Assembly (NCBI GenBank): GCA_965205215.1
Contig: OZ242041.1
Location: 416,001 to 480,000, forward strand
DNA length: 64,000 bases
Reading direction: 5' to 3'
Source of the DNA: Nitrosopumilus sp.
GTDB taxonomy: Archaea > Thermoproteota > Nitrososphaeria > Nitrososphaerales > Nitrosopumilaceae
Shown: piece by piece, positions 4,382 to 25,941 of the stretch
Position numbering within the stretch: position 1 is the stretch's first letter
Layout of the letters: every line of letters begins with the position of its first letter
Notes under the pieces: model-generated
What the model was told of the DNA's origin: nothing
Databases searched by the model: none
What the model saw: the letters and a program-made list of their open reading frames with translations, nothing else
Translations under genes and position numbers: made by a program

Positions 4382-5809
4382 CTATCCGTTGTAGTTCTGG
4401 CTCTTGAGCTCGTACGTTTTGAGGTTGACCAGTGCGGCAATCCCCGGGTTGGGCACTATGCCGACGCTGGCCTGGAACGGCGTCTGGCGTTGCCAGGCCC
4501 CCGAGTTGACGAGCAGGGTGCCCCTGTACTTGCTGACTGCCCACCTGTGCACGTGCCCCGCGTGGAATATGTCGATGTCGTCCCCTATGACCATCCAGTC
4601 CTCAAGCTCGGGGGCAATTGGTGTCCTCTCCCCGTATATGGGGCTCAGGTGCCGCGCCCTCAGCAGGAGCTCCATTACCGCGATGGGCTCGTCGTAACTG
4701 AGGCCCGGCGTGACCCTGACTATGTCGTCGATCGACTGCCCGTGGAACATCAGGACCCTGACACCGTTGAGCGAGACCACGGCGGGGTTTCCGACCATGG
4801 TTATGTTCTCGCGGCGCCACAGCCCCGGGCAGTACCTTTCTGGTATTGCCGGCTGGGGCAGGGCCCTTCTTCCGGGATCGTGGTTCCCGGGGGAGATTAT
4901 GATCTTGATGCGCTCCGGTATCTCGGCAAGCATCTCCTCGAGGCGCCCCAACTGCTCCTCGACAGTGTCCATCTCCAGCTCCTTATCCTGGTCCTTGTAG
5001 ATTCCCACCCCGTCGACCACGTCGCCACATATCAGGACGAACCGCACGTTCCTTGCGACCGCGTCCGCCTCCGAGAGCCAGCCCACAAACCCCCTGAACT
5101 CCTCCTCCATGAAGTATTTCGAGCCGACGTGAAGGTCGGAGATCAGGGCCGCCCAGGCGCCCGTCTCAGACCTGTTGGGCACGTGGGCCGGGGTGTCGGG
5201 CAGGATGATCTCCTTGGCAAAGACGCCCCTCTTGCCCCTTCCCAGCCTCAGCATTGCCATCTGGTCCCGCATCAGGGAGCCGGCCTCCTTCTGCAGCTCC
5301 TCGTTGTACACGGGTATGGACAGCACTCCCGAGGGATCCTCCAAGAGGATCTCGGCCCTACTGTCCCTGACCTCCCTGTCGTTGATCAGTCCGGCCACGT
5401 AGGCGTCCTCGTCGTCCTTTGCGCCGCCCGATCTCCTGACGGACTCCACGGACTTGACCTTTTTGGACTCGGGCCTGGCTGCGATTATGGACTTTAACTT
5501 TTCATACCTGCTGGCGAAGAGTGCGCCGTACCCGTCGACCCCCTCGGCCGTGGTGGTGTGCCCCGTGGGATCCGACAGCACCCTGAGGTCCGCGTCCACC
5601 TCGGCGTCCACCCTGAGGCCCAGGTGCTCCTCAAGGTCGTCTGCCGTCATCTGGGTCCTAGACTCCCTTTTGGCCGCGTGCACCATTGCCTTGACCACGC
5701 CCTCAAGCGAGTCCGACGGGACGCTCCTTAGGATCTCAAAGGCGCGGGGGCTTATCTGGACGCCCCTGCTCAGCGCGTATCCCAGCGCGTCCTTGCGATC
5801 CCACCCCAT
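4382..5809 (-). CDS. DNA polymerase D small subunit DP1
   Basis: Phosphoesterase motifs ISDLHVGS, GDVVDG, PGNHD, FHG, GHVH and OB fold; start set at MGWDRK. Confidence 0.95.
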   Translation of the reverse strand: MGWDRKDALGYALSRGVQISPRAFEILRSVPSDSLEGVVKAMVHAAKRESRTQMTADDLEEHLGLRVDAEVDADLRVLSDPTGHTTTAEGVDGYGALFASRYEKLKSIIAARPESKKVKSVESVRRSGGAKDDEDAYVAGLINDREVRDSRAEILLEDPSGVLSIPVYNEELQKEAGSLMRDQMAMLRLGRGKRGVFAKEIILPDTPAHVPNRSETGAWAALISDLHVGSKYFMEEEFRGFVGWLSEADAVARNVRFVLICGDVVDGVGIYKDQDKELEMDTVEEQLGRLEEMLAEIPERIKIIISPGNHDPGRRALPQPAIPERYCPGLWRRENITMVGNPAVVSLNGVRVLMFHGQSIDDIVRVTPGLSYDEPIAVMELLLRARHLSPIYGERTPIAPELEDWMVIGDDIDIFHAGHVHRWAVSKYRGTLLVNSGAWQRQTPFQASVGIVPNPGIAALVNLKTYELKSQNYNG

Positions 5810-21234: not shown

Positions 21235-21741
21235 CTAGTCTGTAAATTCAGAGGCTGCCCCCGCCGAGGCCTCCTTTGTTCCCTTTATCTTCCTGACCCT
21301 GTCGCCCTCTTCTTCTATGACCTGGTCGATTCCGGCAAGCTTGTTTCTGAGGTTGTTGATTATGGCGCCCACCTCGTCGGCCTCCTCCTCGACCTCCCTC
21401 CTCTTGAGGGCCAGCTTTGTGATCCCGGCGCTCTCGTCCTCTATGTACTCGTTGACCTTTTGGAGCTTTTCCTTGAGGTTCTTGATGTCGACTGACTCGT
21501 CCTCTATGTCCTTTTCAAGCAGGGTGCGCTTGTCCTTGAGGTTCTTTATCATGACCCCGACATAGTCGATGGCCTCCTCGAGCCTTGCACGTTTGTCCAT
21601 CAGGTCCCCGATTCCTATGCGCCCGCCCGGGGCAGTCGGCGCCTCTACGACCGTCCCCTCGCTTGGCGGCCCGGCACTGTTCTCTTCTACTGCTGCCATC
21701 TCCACTTCTCCCTTCCCTTCCCTTCTGAATCTATTAAACAT
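21235..21741 (-). CDS. Coiled-coil hypothetical protein
   Basis: Long heptad-rich ORF; start lies 10 nt from the transposon left end. Confidence 0.75.
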   Translation of the reverse strand: MFNRFRREGKGEVEMAAVEENSAGPPSEGTVVEAPTAPGGRIGIGDLMDKRARLEEAIDYVGVMIKNLKDKRTLLEKDIEDESVDIKNLKEKLQKVNEYIEDESAGITKLALKRREVEEEADEVGAIINNLRNKLAGIDQVIEEEGDRVRKIKGTKEASAGAASEFTD

Positions 21742-21751
21742 TACAATCAGC

Positions 21752-21786
21752 GGTTCTAGTGCAAATTCGGGAGCTGGGCACGGCGT
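21752..21786 (+). repeat. Left terminal inverted repeat
   Basis: Reverse complement of 25568-25602 with one mismatch; begins like IS257/ISS1-type GGTTCTGTTGCAAA ends. Confidence 0.93.
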
Positions 21787-21795
21787 GATCTTCTT

Positions 21796-21981
21796 TCAAA
21801 CCTGCCGACCTGCTTCCTGCTTCAAGTATTCCCTGACCCATCGCTCCGCCTCGGCCTTGGGCGGATTGCCCTCCCGCGATATGCAGTATATGGCAAAATC
21901 GGCAAGTTGGTCGCCGTCAAGTCCTAATTTCCTTCCGCGCTCCACGAATGCCCTTACCGTACTCTTTTGACCACGGTTCAT
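21796..21981 (-). CDS. Small hypothetical cargo protein (61 aa)
   Basis: MNRGQKSTVRAFVERGRKLGLDGDQLADFAIYCISREG..; lies between the tRNA-like gene and the left TIR. Confidence 0.5.
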   Translation of the reverse strand: MNRGQKSTVRAFVERGRKLGLDGDQLADFAIYCISREGNPPKAEAERWVREYLKQEAGRQV

Positions 21982-22021
21982 GCAGTGATACAAGGCGGCC
22001 GCTACTTAATCGTATCATGTG

Positions 22022-22108
22022 CGCGGGGGGCGGGACTTGAACCCGCGGTTCACGGGGTGTGAAATGTGTTTCGTAGACACACGCTCTACCAAGCTGAGCG
22101 ACCCCCGC
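22022..22108 (-). tRNA. Non-canonical tRNA-like gene, anticodon ACG, long variable arm, G73
   Basis: GCGGGGG TC GCTC AGCTTGGTA GAGC G TGTGT CTACGAA ACACA TTTCACACCCCGTGAACC GCGGG TTCAAGT CCCGC CCCCCGC G; all four stems perfectly paired; CCA not encoded. Confidence 0.85.
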
Positions 22109-22134
22109 AAAACTTTTTATCACTATGTGGCGTA

Positions 22135-22198
22135 TGAATGATACGGTTGCCGCTGTAGACACGAATACGGGGTGTGGGCGGTATCCGTATCACATTCA
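22135..22198 (+). ncRNA. Candidate hairpin sRNA antisense to the tRNA-like RNA
   Basis: Stem TGATACGGTTGCCGC/GCGGTATCCGTATCA; loop carries GTAGACAC (=22073-22080) and ACGGGGTGTG (=22052-22061); BRE/TATA-like CGCAAAACTTTTTAT at 22106-22120. Confidence 0.6.
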
Positions 22199-23125
22199 AA
22201 CCCGCTGATCGGTGGCAATCAGGTATAGACTGCTGTTCTGAATGATGGTCTTCCACTTGTTGCGGCCCTCGGTGTGTATGCCTGCCGCCTCTGCCGGGGT
22301 CTTGCAGATTGAGTCATGCTTGCGCACGTGGTTATAGTGAACCTTCATGCCGTCAAACACCGGGGTGTGCGGACTCCGCAGGCCCCGAAACGTCTTCTCC
22401 CTATCACGAATAGTACCGTTCAGGCGCTCCATCTTGTTGTTGGACGGGTGGAAGTTGGCCCCGCTTGTCTTGCCGCTTGGGCCTATGCGCTTGCTCCTGA
22501 TTCCGGCATCACACTTGTGGTATGTCTTGTTGCCAAAGATTTTGCGGGCCGCCTTCTGGTACGCGGGCAGCTTGTCGGTGATCAGCACCGTAGGGTTCTT
22601 GCCACCTGCCGCCTTTTTGGTCATGCGAAATATGTTGTCCGCATCGTGCTTGTCCTTTGAATCCGCAAGCTCGCCCGCCAGCCAGTATCTGGTATCATCA
22701 TCCATCGTGGCAAACAGGTAGTGCTTCCTGCCGTCCACCTTGACCCACACCTCGTCCCCGCGATACCACTTGCCCACGTCGGGGGTGAGGCTGTCAGTGT
22801 ACAAAGAGGCAATCTTGGAGTATCGGTCAACCCACCTTCGTATGGTCGAATCATCAACGTCAATGCCGCGTGCCTCGAACAGGTCGGCGACCGCGTAAGA
22901 GCTCATCCCTGAATAGTAGAGATGGATTGCCTCGCTTACGATTGCCGGATCAAACTGCCTGTACCGGAATCCAAAGTTTGCAGTAAACGCCTTGCCGCAC
23001 GCGTTGCATTTGTACCTCTGAACCGAGCCGTTCTTGTTCTTGCGGACGCCGCGCCTCTTGATTTTATCGGAGCGGCAGAACTTGCAGAATGTAATGACAT
23101 CATGGGAGTCAATGTGAGTGCTCAT
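22196..23125 (-). CDS. IS6-family DDE transposase with N-terminal zinc ribbon
   Basis: CKFC..YKCNACGKAF, HTH STIRRWV, GDEVWVKV, LITDK, NNKMERLNGTIRDR; ORF intact. Confidence 0.92.
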   Translation of the reverse strand: MSTHIDSHDVITFCKFCRSDKIKRRGVRKNKNGSVQRYKCNACGKAFTANFGFRYRQFDPAIVSEAIHLYYSGMSSYAVADLFEARGIDVDDSTIRRWVDRYSKIASLYTDSLTPDVGKWYRGDEVWVKVDGRKHYLFATMDDDTRYWLAGELADSKDKHDADNIFRMTKKAAGGKNPTVLITDKLPAYQKAARKIFGNKTYHKCDAGIRSKRIGPSGKTSGANFHPSNNKMERLNGTIRDREKTFRGLRSPHTPVFDGMKVHYNHVRKHDSICKTPAEAAGIHTEGRNKWKTIIQNSSLYLIATDQRV

Positions 23126-23354: not shown

Positions 23355-23585
23355 ATGGGATCACGTAATCTGAAGACCATCAAGGGCAAGCCGTATCTTT
23401 ACTATGTCATATCCAAGGATGGAAAAAAGAAGGCGATCTACTGCGGGCTGGCATCAAATCACGAATCCGAGAAAAAGGCGCTTGTGCTGGAGCTTGAGGA
23501 AACATCATCGCGTATAAAGTCACTTGAGCTAAAGGCCGTTGAGATAAAATCCAAGCTGGAGGCCTTGCCGGAGGTGCAATCGTGA
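23355..23585 (+). CDS. Small basic protein with coiled-coil tail, mobile-element type
   Basis: KTIKGKPYLYYV..DGKKKAIYCG beta-hairpin motif; divergent from the transposase across an AT-rich spacer. Confidence 0.7.
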   Translation: MGSRNLKTIKGKPYLYYVISKDGKKKAIYCGLASNHESEKKALVLELEETSSRIKSLELKAVEIKSKLEALPEVQS

Positions 23586-23681
23586 TACCGCCAAGCACAC
23601 CTACCGCCAAGCACACCTACCGCCAAGCACACCTACCGCCAAGCACACCTACCGCCAAGCACACCTACCGCCAAGCACACC
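23586..23681. repeat. Perfect tandem repeat, 6 x 16 bp (TACCGCCAAGCACACC)
   Basis: Six exact copies counted, no spacers. Confidence 0.97.
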
Positions 23682-23789
23682 ATAGTTAGCGGGGGGCGAC
23701 CACCATGTCACATATCCAGCAATAGGGGCGCTATAAGTCCACCGGGGGCGGCCTGACTGCCGCCCAAGCCTAACTGGGCCAACCGTACC

Positions 23790-25013
23790 ATGTGGACTGG
23801 TGACAATCTGGACATTATGCGCGGCATGAACTCCGACTCGGTAGATCTCATTTACTTGGATCCTCCCTTTAACAGCAACAAGACATACGAGGCCCCAGTC
23901 GGCTCGGAAGCGGCGGGCGCGGCCTTCAAGGACACGTGGACATTGAGTGATCTTGACATTGCATGGCACGGCTATCTGGCAGACAAGGAGCCCGCCCTGT
24001 ATTCGACAATAGGTACGGCCCGCAGTACGCACGGCAAGTCTATGATGTCATACCTGATCATGATGGGCGTCCGACTTATTGAAATGCGACGCTTGTTAAA
24101 ATCTACGGGTTCAATCTATCTGCACTGCGATCCGACCGCATCACATTATCTCAAGATAGTTATGGATTCGATATTTGGTCATAAGAATTTTAGGAACGAA
24201 ATAGTGTGGTGTTATACTGGGCCCGGCTCTCCAAAAATGCGTCAATTTAACCGTAAACATGACACCTTGTTTTGGTATGTAAAAGGTGAAACGTGGACTT
24301 TTAACACCGATGCAGTGCGCATCAAACATCATGGAAAGACCAAAGAAAATTTTAAGGATGGATTGCGCGGTTCAGGATTCGTAGAAGGAAAATATGGTTT
24401 AGCAGAAGGCAAAGTACCTGAATCTTGGTGGGTTCAAGAGAAAGGCAACGGCTTTGCCATTGCTGCACGACAAAAACATCAATATGTCGGTTACCCTACC
24501 CAAAAACCACTGGCTCTACTAGAGCGAATAATCAAGGCGTCCAGCAATGAGGGTGACGTGATACTCGACCCCTTCTGCGGGTGCGCAACCGCCTGCGTGG
24601 TCGCGGAGCGCCTAAACAGGCAGTGGGTCGGCATCGACCTGTCATCAATGGCGCTTAAACTTGTCAGAAAGAGAATCAAGGAGAGTATCGGCATGTTCGC
24701 ATACGACATAGCAGAACGCGACGACATTCCCAAACGGACGGATCAGGGCAAGATCCCGAATTACCGCACGCACAAGCACGAGCTGTATGGCAGGCAGGAG
24801 GGCATGTGCGTGTGTGGCCAACATTTTCCGTTCAGGAATTTTACCGTAGACCACATCGTCCCGCAGAGCAAGGGCGGCACGGATCACGCAGACAACCTCC
24901 AACTACTATGCGGTGCCTGCAACAGCCTCAAGGGCAACAGGGAGCAGGCATACCTCATTGCCAAACTCAAGGAGAATGGGATCGATGCACTCATGCCCCC
25001 GATACGGGCCTGA
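23790..25013 (+). CDS. Beta-class N6/N4 DNA methyltransferase fused to C-terminal HNH domain
   Basis: YLDPPFNS, YPTQKP, LDPFCGCAT; VDHIVPQSKGGTDHADNLQLLCGACNSLKG; frame is open back to CTG 23757. Confidence 0.92.
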   Translation: MWTGDNLDIMRGMNSDSVDLIYLDPPFNSNKTYEAPVGSEAAGAAFKDTWTLSDLDIAWHGYLADKEPALYSTIGTARSTHGKSMMSYLIMMGVRLIEMRRLLKSTGSIYLHCDPTASHYLKIVMDSIFGHKNFRNEIVWCYTGPGSPKMRQFNRKHDTLFWYVKGETWTFNTDAVRIKHHGKTKENFKDGLRGSGFVEGKYGLAEGKVPESWWVQEKGNGFAIAARQKHQYVGYPTQKPLALLERIIKASSNEGDVILDPFCGCATACVVAERLNRQWVGIDLSSMALKLVRKRIKESIGMFAYDIAERDDIPKRTDQGKIPNYRTHKHELYGRQEGMCVCGQHFPFRNFTVDHIVPQSKGGTDHADNLQLLCGACNSLKGNREQAYLIAKLKENGIDALMPPIRA

Positions 25014-25055: not shown

Positions 25056-25457
25056 TTGCCCGTTTATATTGCATCTACGCCCACGTATGACGTGATGTTC
25101 GAAAGCAAAATCTCCGACGACTATGACGACAGACCCATCCCGGACAGCGTACCGATAGGCACGTTGGCGTACAGGTGGTGCCAGCATAGTGGCAATAGAG
25201 AGGCCATACACTACTCGTTCAAGCGATGGTCATTTCCGGGGGACTATGACGAGGATGAACTGAACAGGGCCATAGACGAGTCCCTTGCAAAGTATCCGGA
25301 GGCCCTAAGGGCATTCCTCGAACGCAAGAAAGACGTCGAGGATGATGGGAATCTCATGTGCAGCTATCCGGCAGAGGATCCCACGCGCACGGACGATTCA
25401 GATAGCAGTGCCTCGCAACCGAATTCTCAACAGTACCGTCCCTTGAACACTTATTAA
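25056..25457 (+). CDS. Acidic hypothetical cargo protein
   Basis: ORF directly after the MTase-HNH gene; likely start ATG 25095. Confidence 0.5.
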   Translation: MPVYIASTPTYDVMFESKISDDYDDRPIPDSVPIGTLAYRWCQHSGNREAIHYSFKRWSFPGDYDEDELNRAIDESLAKYPEALRAFLERKKDVEDDGNLMCSYPAEDPTRTDDSDSSASQPNSQQYRPLNTY

Positions 25458-25567: not shown

Positions 25568-25602
25568 ACGCCGTGCCTAGCTCCCGAATTTGCACTAGAA
25601 CC
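25568..25602 (-). repeat. Right terminal inverted repeat
   Basis: Inverted copy of 21752-21786, followed by the duplicated CAATCAGC. Confidence 0.93.
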
Positions 25603-25941
25603 CAATCAGCCCCGGCCGCTTGGCATAAAAAGATAGGCCCCGGCACCGCCCCCGCGCGGGCATCGCGCACCTGCATAACGGTCGGAAACTAGATTGTCCG
25701 GTGCAGTCCAGAACCACCGTCCGGCCCGAGAAAATGCCCGTCCCTCTCATGCCCCTAAAGCATGGCGGTGCACATATTTTCAATTACTGGGTCGTATGGA
25801 CCAAGCCCGGCGCATCTCACGACCCGGGCGTATGTGAAGGGCCGTCTCGGCGTGTGGCGGCGGCCGCAGCAGCAGCGTGTCGGTAGGAGCACGCCGCCGC
25901 CGATCTCAAGATATAAAAAGTGGATTTCCAAGTCGGCAGGC

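Follow-up and report, generated by a model that had tools for sequence, protein, structure and literature searches.

In a 64,000-nucleotide stretch of the genome of an ammonia-oxidising archaeon, Nitrosopumilus sp. (GenBank assembly GCA_965205215.1, contig OZ242041.1, positions 416,001 to 480,000; hereafter the window, to which all coordinates refer unless a genome is named), the gene at 22022-22108 is a real and intact long-arm tRNA gene with the anticodon ACG. The encoded tRNA is not one of the arginine tRNAs of its host. It is the cargo of a transposon that inserted recently, it belongs to a small group of long-arm orphan tRNAs whose surroundings are mobile elements or defence genes, and an adjacent hairpin is tied to it and mirrors its arms. 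The ACG tRNA is not part of the host decoding set and travels on mobile DNA. Our preferred reading, held tentatively and at somewhat less than an even chance, is that it is a mobile, serine-type, missense-capable orphan tRNA, the archaeal 7/5 counterpart of the bacterial allo-tRNAs, possibly checked by a hairpin RNA. A preliminary description of the window, made from the sequence alone, had recognised the tRNA; the strand of the gene, the transposon, the paralogues and the upstream hairpin were absent from it.

Architecture of the ACG tRNA and the tRNA set of its host

The gene comprises 87 nucleotides (nt) on the minus strand and folds into a structurally intact 7/5 cloverleaf. ARAGORN calls it tRNA-Arg(acg) at 22021-22108, and the Rfam family RF00005 matches it end to end (22022-22108) with 56.3 bits, against a gathering score of 29 and with E = 1.8e-09 in the 64-kb window; this score ranks 24th among the 41 tRNA matches of the whole genome. 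All 26 stem pairs are Watson-Crick pairs, as judged by ARAGORN, RF00005 and the drawn fold. Specifically, a 7-bp acceptor stem is followed by U8 and C9, a 4-bp D stem closes a 9-nt loop containing G18, G19 and U20 and is followed by G26, and a 5-bp anticodon stem carries a 7-nt loop with U33, A34-C35-G36 (22074-22072) and A37. In the variable region, which spans 18 nt (22047-22064), 1 nt precedes and 2 nt follow a 5-bp stem capped by a 5-nt loop; the T arm combines a stem of 5 bp with a standard loop, G73 (22022) serves as the discriminator, and CCA is not encoded. The bases that make tertiary contacts are in place (U8, A14, G18, G19, the T-loop bases and the G15/C48 pair), and the sole irregularity relative to the RF00005 alignment is the presence of ~14 extra nucleotides in the variable region. 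The fold bears out the preliminary description on the perfect cloverleaf, the anticodon loop with ACG and A34, the 5-bp variable stem, the G discriminator, U20 in place of A20, and a 7/5 branch in place of 8/4 or 9/3. Standard tRNA finders label the gene tRNA-Arg, which is a warning for annotators.

The host genome is a single contig of 2.10 Mb with 60.3% G+C, and it encodes archaeal AmoA (389 bits), identifying the host as an ammonia oxidiser; around the ACG tRNA locus it encodes TFIIB, a thermosome subunit and a Snf7-like protein. All five Arg tRNAs (GCG, CCG, UCG, UCU and CCU) and all four Ser tRNAs are present in addition to the ACG gene. In other respects the tRNA set is typical of archaea. 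The wobble bases of the other host tRNAs are G, C or U, and the ACG gene is the only credible tRNA gene in the genome with adenosine at the wobble position (A34). Two further ARAGORN calls were set aside: an 'agg' (tRNA-Pro) at genome position 721812 reads as the initiator tRNA with an intron inserted in the D loop, which ARAGORN miscalls, and an 'atg' called in intron mode is missing from the 41 Rfam tRNA matches. According to PMC11066159, archaea have no A34 tRNA genes. A profile search found no TadA-like deaminase in the host genome, where the sole gene of the cytidine/adenosine-deaminase fold scores 103 bits with the dCMP-deaminase model ComEB and 19 bits with TadA; because this gene looks like a dCMP deaminase, conversion of A34 to inosine is not expected. 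The generalisation that archaea have neither tRNAs with ANN anticodons nor an A34 deaminase thus holds in this host, apart from the ACG gene itself.

Three marks are common to all five host Arg tRNAs, namely a D loop containing A20 (an extra A), a 5-nt variable loop and an unusual T loop, and the ACG tRNA has none of them. The statement that tRNA-Arg is a class I tRNA with A20 is therefore true of every genuine host Arg tRNA and untrue of the ACG gene. The ACG gene shares with bacterial tRNA-Arg(ACG) the anticodon and the kind of anticodon loop (U33, A37 and A38). However, the bacterial tRNA is class I, has A20 and is read as ICG after deamination by TadA, whereas the archaeal gene has a long arm and U20 and resides in a host without a TadA-like gene.

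The overall plan of the ACG tRNA is that of canonical archaeal tRNA-Ser. Both have a 7/5 cloverleaf, G73, U8 and C9, a 4-bp D stem with a 9-nt D loop, and a long arm with 1 nt before and 2 nt after its stem, and this arm-base geometry is also that of the host Ser tRNAs. The two differ in the anticodon (NGA or GCU in tRNA-Ser), in the arm (a 4-bp stem with a tetraloop in tRNA-Ser, a 5-bp stem with a 5-nt loop in the ACG gene) and in the D-stem sequence, which in the ACG tRNA is of the Thr/Phe/Met type. The 4-bp D stem had been put forward as a class-I-type contrast, which does not survive comparison with the genuine host Ser tRNAs, since these have the same 4-bp stem and 9-nt loop. Likewise, the acceptor that had been called Leu-like is equally close in sequence to the tRNA-Ser(GCU) of relatives. 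A tRNA-Leu identity is at odds with G73 and with a D arm and an arm geometry that are not those of Leu tRNAs, which in this host have a 3-bp D stem and a variable arm with 0 nt before and 4 nt after the stem. The best full-length blastn matches of the ACG tRNA in 40 relatives show 69-71% identity, and the four full-length loci that were fetched (L004, L005, L007 and L009) are all called tRNA-Ser(GCU).

The transposon carrying the tRNA

The ACG tRNA lies within a 3.85-kb transposon of the IS6 type (IS, insertion sequence), which is bounded by inverted ends and an 8-bp target duplication. Its features are as follows (aa, amino acids; ORF, open reading frame).

21744-21751, unstranded: left target-site duplication of 8 bp (CAATCAGC), identical to the 8 bp at 25603-25610
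21752-21786, unstranded: left 35-bp terminal inverted repeat, identical at 34 of 35 positions to 25568-25602 on the other strand
21796-21993, minus strand: 65-aa ORF downstream of the tRNA, no function assigned, no NCBIfam match
22022-22108, minus strand: tRNA with anticodon ACG at 22074-22072 (ARAGORN, RF00005, fold, covariation with three related orphan tRNAs)
22109-22121, plus strand: A/T-rich box abutting the 5′ end of the tRNA, a putative TFIIB recognition element (BRE) and TATA box pointing away from the tRNA
22135-22198, unstranded: hairpin upstream of the tRNA with copies of tRNA segments, no Rfam family
22196-23125, minus strand: IS6/IS240-type DDE transposase of 309 aa (PF13610, 44.9 bits, cut-off 27)
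23355-23585, plus strand: 76-aa ORF, no function assigned, no NCBIfam match
23570-23697, unstranded: tandem array of ~7 copies of a 16-nt unit, found by repeat search
23790-25013, plus strand: DNA N6/N4 methyltransferase-HNH nuclease fusion of 407 aa (PF01555, 159.5 bits; PF01844, 51.4 bits)
25056-25457, plus strand: 133-aa ORF, no function assigned, no NCBIfam match
25568-25602, unstranded: right 35-bp terminal inverted repeat, the inverted copy of 21752-21786
25603-25610, unstranded: right target-site duplication of 8 bp, the same as 21744-21751

The insertion site is found empty in another population, as seen in public sequencing runs. In run X3, a contig proceeds to 21751 and continues with 30 letters identical to 25611-25640, and run X8 contains the same empty site with one mismatch over 22 letters. 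Furthermore, the G+C content of the transposon is 52%, as against 60.3% for the genome. The transposase scores 106.5 bits with the NCBIfam IS6 model, below the cut-off of 125. With the passenger-carrying IS6 family the element shares an IS6/IS240-type DDE transposase, terminal inverted repeats and an 8-bp target duplication; it differs in its 3.85-kb length and in its five further cargo features, the tRNA gene among them. Thaumarchaeal IS-like transposons typically have 1-2 genes, according to the accessible text of PMC6563490.

Within the element, the hairpin-plus-tRNA unit looks like an addition. A contig of run X5 represents a related element (~92% identical, depth 2.8) that covers 21757-21981 and joins 21981 to 22235 through 74 other letters, leaving out the 253 nt that hold the tRNA and the hairpin, and in the related transposase copies of run X3 the similarity ends at the stop codon. 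Copies of a 7-nt direct repeat lie on either side of the unit (22192-22186 and 22017-22011, 175 nt from start to start) and might be the target duplication of a mini-cassette or a product of chance. The hairpin was also considered as an end of the transposase's IS and rejected, there being no inverted repeat shared between it and the opposite flank of the transposase gene. Synteny in relatives allowed no element boundary to be drawn: a pair of genes for a Snf7-like and a coiled-coil protein is conserved, and what lies beyond it is not.

Three more partial or diverged copies of a transposase of this type are present in the genome (G000:C1, 973195-973323, 652738-652870 and 916595-916641), none with a tRNA downstream. 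The 16-nt repeat array is iteron-like and sits between the 76-aa ORF and the methylase-HNH gene.

Related orphan tRNAs and the upstream hairpin

The same genome contains a paralogue with the anticodon GAU (G000:C1:1241893-1241977, minus strand), which has a Ser-like body closest to the three Ser tRNAs, G73, and an anticodon loop with C33, GAU and G37. It lies in a defence island with genes for TIR (CAP12-type), SF1 helicase, SWIM, DNA methylase and ResIII proteins, and no convincing inverted ends were found around it. In a genome of the same genus (G387), a long-arm 7/5 tRNA with G73, GAU, G37 and an 18-nt variable region (L066, G387:C45, 657-743) is located 1.5 kb from an IS240-type transposase that is 39% identical to that of the window. 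Genome G295, from a different genus of the same family, encodes a Ser-like tRNA with G73 and the leucine anticodon UAA (L064, G295:C1, 6086-6169); an IS66 element with perfect 23-bp ends lies 300 nt away. A second UAA copy (L063, G295:C1, ~5267-5350), now decayed, lies near a gene with a SocA/Panacea antitoxin domain, and one further genome (G160) yielded only a poor candidate for a long-arm tRNA. When the four intact orphan tRNAs are compared, 83 of the 84 stem cells are paired and both partners have changed in 11 of the 21 pairs, a result reached in none of 500 shuffles.

The set is small in the genomes searched. A pattern for long-arm tRNAs with non-Ser anticodons and A or U at position 35 matched in 110 of 401 genomes of the order, and, judged from the matched strings, the long-arm tRNAs among these matches comprise five rows (the host genome, G387, G295 twice, and the poor candidate of G160); nearly all of the remainder are genes for Asn or Lys tRNAs in which an intron follows position 37. 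Of 301 genomes of the family, one matched a pattern with C35 and a base other than U at position 36, through the window's own gene, and none matched a pattern with G35 and a base other than A at position 36. A class II ACG pattern had no match in the genome, viral or metagenome contig collections, and a pattern for the hairpin-plus-tRNA cassette had none in the metagenome or genome contig collections; all these patterns demand particular letters in the D loop and T loop, which diverged relatives would escape. The viral scan returned 114 stretches, and the 80 examined are tRNAs of phages or giant viruses that have long arms or introns and are unrelated to the ACG gene. Many phage contigs (L070, L075, L083, L088, L091 and others) encode Trp(CCA), Gly(UCC) or Lys(UUU) tRNAs with an extra variable arm of 15-20 nt.

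Three of the four orphan genes have, 50-100 nt upstream, a hairpin containing same-sense copies of their own variable arm and of the 5′ strand of their own anticodon stem. The first copy comprises the end of the anticodon-stem 3′ strand together with the variable arm, and extends over 10 nt at -68 in the ACG locus and 15 nt at -70 in the GAU locus; the second comprises the anticodon-stem 5′ strand and the first loop bases, and extends over 8 nt and 7 nt, respectively, in both cases from -54. In the window, the copy of the variable arm is at 22167-22176, and the copy of the anticodon-stem 5′ strand with loop bases 32-35 is at 22155-22162. The UAA gene of G295 is arranged likewise, its copies measuring 15 nt (at -98) and 7 nt (at -73). 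Among the 44 tRNA genes of the host, the two longest upstream self-matches are those of the ACG and GAU genes, the other 42 having at most 9 nt. The similarity of these two paralogous loci is confined to ~-95 to +90 and their upstream regions are otherwise only weakly homologous; therefore, the self-copies have changed together with their tRNA. The hairpin at 22135-22198 has no match among Rfam families. That it might be a decayed tandem copy of the tRNA is ruled out by the order of the two copied segments, which is swapped relative to the tRNA.

Several hints, none of them decisive, suggest that the opposite strand is the one that would form the RNA. The opposite strand folds better at two of three loci (-28.8 versus -21.3 kcal/mol and -17.5 versus -9.9 kcal/mol) and equally well at the third, and in G295 the hairpin of the opposite strand is followed by seven U. 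An A4-G/C-T motif related to the A/T-rich box of the ACG locus precedes the three other orphan tRNAs and none of the ordinary tRNAs compared. Read on the opposite strand, the hairpin has an unpaired internal loop complementary to tRNA loop bases 32-35 and an apical loop complementary to the variable loop. When the putative antisense RNAs were ranked by duplex energy against 37 host tRNAs, the cognate tRNA came third for ACG and first for GAU; because the method permits long and loose duplexes, the ranking is uninformative.

Possible roles of the ACG tRNA and competing explanations

Because SerRS recognises its substrates by the long arm and G73, irrespective of the anticodon (as described in the accessible part of PMC7609411), and the host has one ordinary SerRS with an arm-binding N-terminal domain, the ACG tRNA would most likely be charged with serine. 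An unmodified A34 would pair best with the arginine codon CGU, which is rare in the host (4.0 per 1000 codons versus 21.5 for CGC), potentially causing low-level Arg-to-Ser missense. In quantity such a tRNA would do harm, and mobile and defence genes surround it, for which reason its likely role would be in genetic conflict, as an addiction or toxin-like module or through interference with tRNA-targeting enzymes, and not in routine translation. The adjacent hairpin is probably the regulator of the tRNA, because it repeats the arms of the tRNA and changes in step with it between paralogues. Transcription from the opposite strand would make it an antisense RNA with loops that match the anticodon and variable loops of the tRNA.

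The bacterial allo-tRNAs, which the preliminary description had named as a precedent, fit this reading, including in their association with transposons. In the available text of PMC5389517, allo-tRNAs are described as having Ser identity and non-Ser anticodons, as lying near toxin-antitoxin and transposon genes, and as causing lethality on induction. As far as the accessible parts of PMC5389517 and PMC7609411 go, they share with the ACG gene a long arm, G73 and a non-Ser anticodon, those with Arg anticodons included, as well as the status of accessory genes near transposable elements; theirs are also near toxin-antitoxin genes. Active allo-tRNAs are there said to cause missense and to be toxic when over-expressed, and some groups are thought to be unused in translation. 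However, the allo-tRNAs described in these sources have an 8/4 or 9/3 acceptor/T branch and come from bacteria (Clostridia, Proteobacteria and Acidobacteria), whereas the ACG gene is 7/5 and archaeal, and unlike them it has A34 and a hairpin copying its own arms. Failing both the 8/4 or 9/3 geometry and the bacterial host, the ACG gene is not an allo-tRNA by definition, and by analogy it may work like one without being one.

Natural tRNAs capable of missense are known from bacteria and yeasts. A limited literature search found no archaeal missense-capable tRNA and no archaeal A34, long-arm or IS-borne tRNA. If the ACG tRNA is expressed and serylated, mistranslation by mobile tRNAs, whether deliberate or selfish, would reach archaea with no need of an 8/4 or 9/3 fold, and the co-varying hairpin would offer a concrete and testable idea of how the cell or the element restrains such a tRNA.

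A number of points weigh against a serine-type missense tRNA restrained by a hairpin RNA. No RNA run was listed for the interval 21600-22700, and the upstream region does not have the clear TATA box of ordinary host tRNA genes (-35 to -25). The gene is a singleton, with no orthologue found by blastn in the 40 relatives, and the covariation among the orphan tRNAs could be inherited in part from different parental tRNAs. Outside the two lower arms (anticodon and variable), the body of the ACG tRNA matches elongator Met, Phe and Ser(GCU) equally well, each at 42 of 52 positions. The earlier term 'chimeric' is thus loose, and 'serine-type', as judged from these comparisons, is a matter of architecture and identity marks and not of clear descent. 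The arm itself, with its 5-bp stem and 5-nt loop, is longer than its counterpart in the host Ser tRNAs, which has a 4-bp stem and a tetraloop. As for the hairpin, the G387 gene has no upstream self-copy, and the swapped order of the two copied segments makes one continuous antisense duplex impossible, permitting only separate loop-loop contacts. Finally, ArgRS relies mainly on C35 and G36, both of which are present in the ACG tRNA, and host Arg(GCG) and Arg(UCU) likewise have G73, so arginine or dual charging of the ACG tRNA may be possible.

The last point leads to the first competing explanation, that the ACG tRNA is an accessory tRNA accepting arginine, charged by ArgRS through C35 and G36 in spite of its long arm and lack of A20, and supplying the transposon with an extra Watson-Crick reader of CGU. 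The tRNAs found on phages and plasmids are fitted to the codon usage of these elements, and the anticodon ACG with A37, the shared G73, and the composition of the transposon (52% versus 60.3% G+C, with CGT as 7 of 70 Arg codons in its ORFs versus ~6% genome-wide) would agree with such a role. However, the gene has none of the D-loop, variable-loop and T-loop marks of the host Arg tRNAs, host Arg(GCG) already reads CGU, and the excess of CGT in the cargo is small, at seven codons in total. Moreover, the paralogue and relatives carry unrelated anticodons (GAU with G37, and UAA) on the same kind of body, which argues against a codon-supply role. We regard this explanation as rather unlikely.

To an explanation outside translation we likewise give a fairly low probability. 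Here, the gene would produce a tRNA-shaped RNA that the ribosome does not use, either as a decoy or bait for tRNA-cleaving or tRNA-modifying enzymes or as a structural or processing element of a ~180-nt hairpin-plus-tRNA cassette that would move from one mobile element to another. The hairpin and tRNA behave as one unit, in that the similarity between the paralogues is limited to ~-95 to +90 and the related element in run X5 is without exactly the hairpin-plus-tRNA stretch, and a 7-nt direct repeat flanks the unit. Every orphan-tRNA locus has a defence island or mobile element, and both GAU genes have G37, unusual for a reader of codons starting with A. Many bacterial allo-tRNA(UAU) genes are, in the portion of PMC5389517 available, judged not to be used for translation. 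Against this, the features needed for translation are intact in the ACG tRNA (7/5 branch, U33, purine at position 37, T loop and tertiary pairs), profile searches of the neighbouring genes revealed no recognisable tRNA-targeting nuclease beside it, and the 7-nt repeat could be due to chance. The specific proposal of a decoy for anticodon nucleases or synthetases, made in the preliminary description, found no specific support.

A more elaborate possibility, which we consider unlikely, combines missense with the cassette: a ~180-nt RNA-only addiction or defence cassette in which a Ser-charged tRNA with the anticodon of a sense codon would be the poison, through mistranslation, and a divergently transcribed hairpin the antidote, the cassette hopping between transposons and defence islands. 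The apical and internal loops of the hairpin would pair with the variable loop, which is the handle for SerRS, and with the anticodon loop, and the anticodon and its mask would change together in ammonia-oxidising archaea.

That the gene is a functionless hitch-hiker, a duplicated tRNA that underwent an anticodon change and arm expansion and is now decaying, appears very unlikely. Such a history would suit a singleton in one species with a weak promoter context, and the degenerate UAA copy in G295 indicates that genes of this kind do decay. However, the ACG tRNA has no mismatch in its 26 pairs even though its identity to any other tRNA is at most ~71%, the changes among the family members are compensatory, and the upstream copies co-vary with the tRNA.

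The remaining alternative, that the extra arm is a small intron and that splicing would yield an ordinary class I tRNA, is so improbable that we discount it, chiefly since the arm is a plain 5-bp hairpin without bulges. The host does have non-canonical introns, such as a 16-nt intron with a bulge-helix-bulge motif in the variable loop of tRNA-Val(CAC). However, no bulge-helix-bulge motif is present at the ends of the ACG arm, excision of which had been named beforehand as grounds for abandoning a missense tRNA. Read directly, the sequence offers no way to build a 4-bp central helix with two 3-nt bulges around it, for which the 3′ strand of the anticodon stem would have to pair with the 3′ side of the arm, and the anticodon would remain ACG even after hypothetical splicing. 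The arm cannot be recognised as an intron, and scanning the ACG tRNA with 15-nt flanks for bulge-helix-bulge motifs gave the same picture: none of the six best-ranked candidates leaves a product that ARAGORN calls a tRNA. The sensitivity of the scan is limited, with three of seven known intron-bearing genes recovered, and it serves as supporting evidence only. The introns recovered are those of Val(CAC), restored to a 75-nt tRNA, Tyr and elongator Met, and those missed are in Leu(CAA), initiator Met, Ser(GGA) and Gln(CUG).

Several host tRNA genes have non-canonical introns. Three of them, at G000:C1:1259788-1259878, 1130114-1130209 and 721813-721902, are tRNA-Val(CAC), with its good bulge-helix-bulge motif, tRNA-Leu(CAA), with ~11 extra nt in the 3′ strand of its anticodon stem, and the initiator tRNA, with its D-loop insertion.

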